64,000 nt of DNA from Escherichia phage CCU7. The stretch is taken from the sequence record PV806175.1. One strand, 5' to 3'. Below are positions 20,004 through 20,656 of the stretch, piece by piece. The number at the start of each line of letters is the position of its first letter. The first letter of the stretch is position 1. The notes beneath the pieces are model-generated. The model saw nothing but the letters and a program-made list of their open reading frames with translations. It made no database searches and was not told where the DNA came from. Made by a program: the position numbers and the translations under genes.

Positions 20004-20205
20004 ACTAATCCAGAAATTGTTTGGTACAGAAATGATCGAAGTTACTTATCGTGTAACTGACTGCTCGCCTATTCATCCACAGGATGAACCATTTATCAAG
20101 ACAATTAAAATGCTTAAAAATGACGGTGGTTTATCTATTGAAGACCGTCTGCCTAGTTACGGCCATTGGGCTGATGTTGAAATTATAAGTGTTAAAGATG
20201 TCTGA
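19993..20205 (+). CDS. hypothetical protein
   Basis: 70-aa ORF. Confidence 0.35.
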   Translation: MLNKLIQKLFGTEMIEVTYRVTDCSPIHPQDEPFIKTIKMLKNDGGLSIEDRLPSYGHWADVEIISVKDV

Positions 20206-20656
20206 ATTAGAAATAAGAAGTAATTTCAAGTGGCCGTCATGTGCATTAAGTAACTTTGCTCAATGGCCTTTTGTTATGGATGGTATTCAATTCGGAGGTC
20301 TTGAAGGATTTCTCCAAGGATGTAAGGTGAAAAATGTTGAACAACAAAGACGTATATTTGGGTTGTCTGGATTGGCTGCACAGCAAGCTGGAAGGTCTTA
20401 TGCAAGAGCTCAGGACCGTGGAACTCTCTTCTGGTTAGGAGTTCCGTTTTCAAGATACTCCGAAGCGTGGAAAGAATTATACACAAATGCATATTTTGAA
20501 GCCGCGATCCAAAATAAGGGGTTTCGTGATGCCTTACAAGCCTCTAAAGGAAAAATTTTGAAGCACAGCATGGCTAGCCACCTAACAAAAGATGATACAA
20601 TACTAACTGAAGCTGAATTTATTGATGTGTTAAACCTATTAAGAGACTCTTTATGA
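20198..20656 (+). CDS. candidate NADAR/YbiA-like (DUF1768-like) protein, 30.3 position
   Basis: ORF trimmed to ATG 20198; 152 aa; N-terminal LSNFAQWPFVMDGIQFGGLEGFLQGCK resembles the YbiA/NADAR core motif as recalled; C-terminal WGxG motif not seen. Confidence 0.4.
   Translation: MSELEIRSNFKWPSCALSNFAQWPFVMDGIQFGGLEGFLQGCKVKNVEQQRRIFGLSGLAAQQAGRSYARAQDRGTLFWLGVPFSRYSEAWKELYTNAYFEAAIQNKGFRDALQASKGKILKHSMASHLTKDDTILTEAEFIDVLNLLRDSL

Follow-up and report, generated by a model that had tools for sequence, protein, structure and literature searches.

An intact ortholog of T4 gene 30.3 (adfN) in Escherichia phage CCU7, a NADAR expected to counter DarTG1

The gene 30.3 locus and its neighbourhood

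The analysed window is a stretch of 64,000 nucleotides from Escherichia phage CCU7 (PV806175.1). Its + strand carries an ORF of 152 amino acids that begins with ATG at 20198 and ends with TGA at 20654-20656, and an alternative in-frame GTG is located upstream at 20189. The ORF had been picked out in an earlier sequence-only reading as a candidate NADAR/YbiA-like gene at 20198-20656; re-reading the sequence confirmed that the feature is real and that these coordinates are exact, and the peptide quoted in that reading, LSNFAQWPFVMDGIQFGGLEGFLQGCK, corresponds to residues 17-43. The encoded protein matched the Pfam family PF08010 ("Bacteriophage protein GP30.3") over its full length, with residues 11-150 covering profile positions 1-138 of 138 (E 1.8e-69, 232.3 bits versus a gathering cutoff of 36), and it also matched phrog_652. 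An ungapped comparison with T4 gp30.3 gave 147 identical residues out of 152. The flanking ORFs follow the T4 gene order, matching T4 30.5, 30.4, 30.2, 30.1, DNA ligase (gene 30), alt.1, and alt. The ORF is an intact ortholog of T4 gene 30.3, now named adfN (anti-DarT factor NADAR), the function of which is already published and is not new.

The features of the locus are as follows.

19752..19781, + strand: candidate sigma-70-like promoter, TTTACA-18-TATAAT, 11/12 consensus, best consensus-scan match upstream of 30.5-30.4-adfN
19993-20205, + strand: gene 30.4, directly upstream of adfN
20198..20656, + strand: adfN (gene 30.3) CDS, predicted phage NADAR DNA ADP-ribosylglycohydrolase, 152 aa plus stop
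20198..20205, + strand: ATGTCTGA junction in the sequence, where the adfN start overlaps the stop of upstream 30.4
20653..20656, + strand: ATGA junction in the sequence, where the adfN stop overlaps the 30.2 start
20653-21477, + strand: gene 30.2, HAD-like, 274 aa, identified by tblastn to T4 (69% identity) and by phrog_420

The overlap between the 30.4 stop and the adfN start suggests that adfN may be translationally coupled with its upstream neighbour. Downstream, gp30.2 contains an N-terminal DIDGV motif and shows weak matches to HAD families (HAD_2, E 0.014; 5'(3')-deoxyribonucleotidase, E 0.19). The alt gene starts at 23490, 2.8 kb downstream of adfN, and four genes including that of DNA ligase lie in between. 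The homolog of alt.1 (23225-23434) matched Pfam PF24647 ("Phage blade protein", E 1.9e-30); its listed GTG start at 23225 overlaps the ligase gene, and an ATG start at 23246, giving 62 aa, is a better fit to the T4-type annotation.

Upstream of adfN, the region of about 19143-19990 is a variable insertion that RB69 does not match at the DNA level; over the initial portion (about 19143-19805), T4 DNA does not match either. An ORF within it, 19107/19137-19751 (204-214 aa), belongs to phrog_17531 of unknown function and gave no match in Pfam and NCBIfam searches. The DNA match to T4 begins at 19806 with the 30.5 homolog (19806-20003), which has 64% amino acid identity to T4 gp30.5 and no annotated counterpart in RB69. 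The sigma-70-like match at 19752..19781 is weakly supported as a possible early promoter: the consensus scan found 27 sigma-70-like sites in the region versus 24.6 +/- 4.2 in shuffled sequence, which is no excess, and the promoter and terminator scan as a whole returned counts no greater than those of shuffled sequence.

The T4 annotation places a further gene, 30.3' (75 aa), in another frame inside 30.3. The counterpart frame in CCU7, 20334-20564 on the + strand and in frame +2 relative to adfN, is closed by a stop once 34 codons have been read; 30.3' thus lacks conservation and probably represents no real gene, or a dispensable one.

Comparison of 19990-26000 with RB69 showed 96.3% nucleotide identity, and Escherichia phage PECP20 was the best match over the whole region (99.9%). 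Together with the classification of close relatives such as HX01 in Mosigvirus, these identities show that the window derives from an RB69-like (Mosigvirus) T-even phage, in contrast to T4, which belongs to Tequatrovirus.

Superfamily membership and active-site residues

The NADAR proposal had been drawn from the likeness of the N-terminus to YbiA. This likeness is not due to chance, as a pairwise BLASTP of the ORF protein with E. coli YbiA (PF08719, 2b3w) aligned the quoted stretch (33% over 57 aa, E 8e-06), while overall identity is only about 20%. Searches with the single sequence were empty: PF08719 did not match the ORF protein at E<=1, and no PDB chain by sequence, no NCBIfam family, and no PADLOC entry was matched. 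The link to NADAR is consequently carried by profile-profile comparison, by bridging sequences, and by the fold. An alignment of 66 diverse gp30.3 relatives was compared by hhalign with a 35-sequence alignment of the YbiA family, giving 97.2% probability and E 3.2e-11 over 125 columns. Searched against PDB sequences, the profile of the 66 members found YbiA (2b3w) as its only meaningful match (E 0.0046), and 24 of the 66 relatives matched PF08719 individually, the best with E 1.5e-07. The AlphaFold2 model built from the same 66 sequences was confident (pLDDT 93.2, pTM 0.88) and displayed the fold of YbiA, with a helical core and small flanking sheets.

Considering that the phage branch has its own Pfam model, PF08010, the missing PF08719 match speaks against filing the protein under PF08719 and not against superfamily membership. 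The PF08719 comparison that the sequence-only reading had proposed was thus negative for the ORF protein directly and positive by way of hhalign and the bridging relatives, and the structure prediction came out in its favour; the outcome that would have spoken against it, an absent profile match combined with an unrelated fold, was not what was found. The assignment to the NADAR-superfamily fold is secure, with the identity now specified as AdfN (gp30.3). The residues and elements relevant to function are listed below.

20303..20305, + strand: codon GAA of Glu36, predicted catalytic, invariant in the 66-sequence alignment, with an E36A phenotype in T4 (PMC11825919)
20324..20326, + strand: codon AAG of Lys43, predicted catalytic, invariant in the 66-sequence alignment, with a K43A phenotype in T4 (PMC11825919)
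20564..20566, + strand: codon CAC of His123, in the last beta-strand (residues 120-123 in the model), invariant in the 66-sequence alignment
20609..20650, + strand: C-terminal alpha-helix, residues 138-151 in the model, deleted in the RB69 allele; need for the helix reported in PMC11825919

Glu36 and Lys43 lie seven residues apart on the helix that follows the SNF motif and have E48 and K55 as their aligned counterparts in YbiA, the hhalign alignment pairing K43 with the invariant K55. Phage NADARs are defined by a His in the last strand, the corresponding residue being Glu in YbiA and Asp in DarG1 (PMC11125620, PMC11543638, PMC12945103), and H123 probably represents this phage-defining residue. 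An ungapped reading of "KILKHS" against "KLVEHT" of YbiA would instead place H123 opposite H126 of YbiA. The invariants of the YbiA-family alignment include E125, D130, Y132, W133, G136, G137, G139, G141, and N143, of which the Gly-rich D-x-YWG-x-GG-x-G-x-N loop precedes the C-terminal helix. The gp30.3 family lacks this loop; across the 66 sequences it carries an invariant T134-x-L136-T137, as well as the invariant H123 after a variable residue. The failure of the sequence-only reading to find a C-terminal "WGxG" element was therefore correct, since the family has T134, L136, and T137 in that place instead of the YbiA loop.

Without the last-strand Glu and the Gly-rich loop, the ORF protein is placed by its sequence features outside the YbiA subfamily proper. 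YbiA is a housekeeping N-glycosidase of a LexA-controlled operon, unlike phage gp30.3. The shared fold and N-terminal motif, and the annotation of the E. coli protein as "N-glycosidase YbiA", would fit an enzyme that destroys reactive intermediates of the riboflavin pathway and has no role in defence. Such a function is extremely improbable here: the invariant D-x-YWG-x-GG loop is missing, the Glu that defines YbiA is replaced by an invariant His, phage NADARs are phylogenetically nearest to the DarG1 antitoxins (PMC11825919), and direct evidence of DNA de-ADP-ribosylation is available for the T4 ortholog (PMC11825919, PMC11125620).

The ORF protein also differs from the DarG1 antitoxin NADARs themselves (BC4488 family; G. 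lovleyi 8bat and the E. coli C7 NADAR), which possess N-terminal extensions forming a DNA-binding channel and an Asp in the last strand. DarG1 adjoins DarT1, whereas adfN is a phage "orphan"; in CCU7 it is flanked by 30.4 and 30.2 with no DarT neighbour, has His and not Asp, and encodes a bare core of 152 aa. Closer in role are AdfN-Bas32 and AdfN-Bas60, NADARs of T5-like and Vequintavirinae phages, which are phage-encoded and counter DarTG1 like the T-even AdfN. Their acquisition was independent and drew on other NADAR branches; in contrast to the T-even type, they are active without infection and also serve unrelated phages.

The CCU7 allele, the RB69 allele, and selection

T4 gene 30.3 was recorded as a phage NADAR in a structural study of DarT1 and NADAR in 2023 (PMC11543638), and in vitro, on DNA, T4 gp30.3 hydrolysed guanine-ADPr and left thymidine-ADPr intact (PMC11125620). 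The construct of the latter work is given as "gp30.3; residues 1-208", which disagrees with the 152 aa of both the T4 reference CDS and the CCU7 ORF. In 2025 gp30.3 was renamed adfN, and genetic mapping identified it as the factor behind the escape of T2 and T4 from DarTG1 (PMC11825919). Deletion of adfN made T4 sensitive to DarTG1, ectopic expression rescued RB69, and the rescue was weakened by E36A and K43A (PMC11825919). DarT1-modified DNA lost its ADP-ribose with purified wild-type AdfN and not with the E36A protein, and AdfN did not bind DarT1 (PMC11825919). The anti-defence or ADP-ribose-processing role suggested by the sequence-only reading has thus been shown by experiment for a 97%-identical protein (PMC11825919, PMC11125620). 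Enzymatic activity, the phenotypes of E36A, K43A, and truncation, and the counter-defence against DarTG1 in T-even infection all come from the literature on this T4 protein and would apply to CCU7 by analogy.

The RB69 allele is a naturally truncated one. RB69 owes its sensitivity to DarTG1 to an inserted T at gene position 411, through which the final 15 residues, those of the C-terminal helix, are lost (PMC11825919). In the alignment, the extra T follows gene position 410, shifts the frame, and lets the translation end in ...DDTILT. CCU7 shares the 30.4-to-alt backbone with RB69 and 96.3% nucleotide identity across the gene, but at 20608 one T stands against the TT of RB69, so that the C-terminal helix (138-151) is encoded. 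Compared with T4 AdfN, the CCU7 protein carries five substitutions (K11R, E89P, I120V, M125I, and H128G), which spare the known catalytic residues; E36, K43, and H123 are all present.

The RB69-like locus, the inactivity of the RB69 allele, and the truncated versions in other phages could raise the suspicion that the CCU7 gene is likewise a decayed, inactive copy. This is hardly credible, as the frame is full length (152 aa) as in T4, the RB69 extra T is absent, the invariant residues of the family are kept, and the dN/dS of adfN against T4 is 0.054, indicating strong purifying selection. The kept catalytic residues, the intact helix, and this selection argue for an active enzyme that is expected to hydrolyse guanine-ADPr on DNA, and CCU7 would accordingly be predicted to resist DarTG1, unlike RB69.

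Several complete T4-like genomes encode shortened 30.3 products of 86-109 aa, some of them being fusions with other 30.x families (PF11097, PF06919, PF06019). Their presence suggests natural loss-of-function or deletion alleles beyond that of RB69.

Among the 103 ORFs of the window with a T4 match, gp30.3 is the most conserved, with 96.7% identity versus a median of 72%; the major capsid protein gp23 reaches 94.8%, and the immediate neighbours of adfN are 41-69% identical to T4. The dS of adfN against T4 is 0.53, compared with 0.49-0.62 for gp23, gp24, and gp31 and 0.9 to saturation for most core genes. Such low dS combined with high identity would fit exceptionally strong constraint and would also fit patchy recombination among T-even genera. 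Further patches of high identity occur near adfN at gp31 (17014-17346), rIII, 30.9, and 30.7. A recent horizontal transfer of adfN from T4 could account for 97% identity amid such divergent neighbours; its dS, however, is not near zero and is in line with those of gp23, gp24, and gp31. Recent transfer is hence neither supported nor excluded, and a strongly constrained gene within a patchy mosaic is no less probable an explanation. The overlapping 30.3' was also considered as a cause of the low synonymous divergence and was rejected owing to the stop in that frame in CCU7.

Expected mechanism and biological context

Orthology, fold, residue conservation, the intact frame, and purifying selection were computed for the CCU7 gene. 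Taken with the T4 literature, they make it very probable that the ORF encodes AdfN (gp30.3), a minimal single-domain NADAR of the phage branch that de-ADP-ribosylates guanine in phage DNA and thereby counters DarTG1. In the proposed course of events, infection of a DarTG1 host would release the DarT1 toxin, which would add ADP-ribose to the N2 of guanine in phage DNA and block replication. AdfN would then bind the ADP-ribosyl-guanine and hydrolyse the N-glycosidic bond, freeing ADP-ribose, restoring unmodified DNA, and allowing replication to resume; its target would be the DNA damage, with no binding of the toxin. Catalysis would involve two residues of the helix that follows the SNF motif, Glu36 and Lys43, and His123 on the last strand, in place of the Glu of YbiA or the Asp of DarG1, and the C-terminal helix 138-151 would be needed for full activity.

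The substrate could also be RNA. The T4 phage NADAR removes guanosine-ADPr from RNA in vitro (PMC11833690), as did every NADAR family tested (PMC11833690, PMC12945103), and ADP-ribosylated guanosine that toxins of the host or of competitors leave in tRNA or mRNA might be the main physiological substrate, or a further one besides DNA. This appears unlikely, given that the E. coli C7 NADAR processed RNA more efficiently than the T4 NADAR did (PMC11833690) and that the in vivo phenotype so far is escape from the DNA-modifying DarT1 with loss of the DNA ADP-ribose signal (PMC11825919).

The position of adfN about 3 kb upstream of alt, as stated in the sequence-only reading, is correct, but the proximity seems to carry little meaning. 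Since the two genes occupy one early-gene block of T-even phages, AdfN might work together with the phage's own Alt, for example by reversing protein modifications made by Alt, ModA, or ModB or by clearing collateral products. In a sample of eight distant phages with a gp30.3 homolog (Acinetobacter, Vibrio, Rhizobium, Brevundimonas, Ralstonia, Aeromonas, and Klebsiella phages and Phi1), the Acinetobacter phage alone had alt within 4 kb, carried on the opposite strand. With one locus in eight, a conserved association of alt and adfN was rejected. In CCU7 itself, four genes including that of DNA ligase intervene; cooperation with Alt is very unlikely, and the proximity is probably incidental.

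The preferred reading, AdfN as a DNA de-ADP-ribosylating factor, still leaves room for a partner or a particular context. T4 AdfN did not rescue DarT1 toxicity in uninfected cells, cannot replace DarG1 there, and helped non-T-even phages only slightly (PMC11825919). Given this weak effect outside T-even infection, part of the AdfN mechanism, whether a partner or a context, may lie beyond the known steps. The extreme conservation of gp30.3, at the top of the 103 ORFs and above the major capsid protein, together with full T4 activity only inside T-even infection, could mean a partner or a phage-internal substrate. Accordingly, the anti-DarT1 role might be only part of its function, complemented by a T-even-specific partner such as the coupled HAD-like gp30.2, or by a substrate such as guanine ADP-ribosylated in a side reaction of Alt, ModA, or ModB; such an extension is judged quite unlikely. 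Gene linkage lent little support to gp30.2 as a partner, without broad co-occurrence across the eight distant phages: a 30.2 homolog adjoined 30.3 in the Acinetobacter T4-like phage and lay about 0.7 kb downstream in the Klebsiella phage (2/8), and none was found within 4 kb in the Vibrio, Aeromonas, Rhizobium, Brevundimonas, and Ralstonia phages and Phi1. The protein could be a cofactor specific to T-even phages, which AdfN-T4 appears to need.

The gp30.3 family was found in 1,510 of 50,697 phage records and is near full length in 1,503. Most of these roughly 1,500 records are labelled "hypothetical protein" despite the published function. The homolog in Klebsiella phage phi1_146002 (4001-4441 of the examined locus) is labelled "virion RNA polymerase", and JGI names several homologs "NAD-dependent protein-ADP-ribosyltransferase YbiA".

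The identity and mechanism of the gene were published in 2023-2025, and the CCU7 ORF, as a near-identical ortholog, adds little new for the window itself. The uninformative or wrong labels of gp30.3 in public records could be corrected. Moreover, the presence of an intact adfN in an RB69-like phage predicts resistance to DarTG1, which would matter when the host ranges of therapeutic T4-like phages are predicted.
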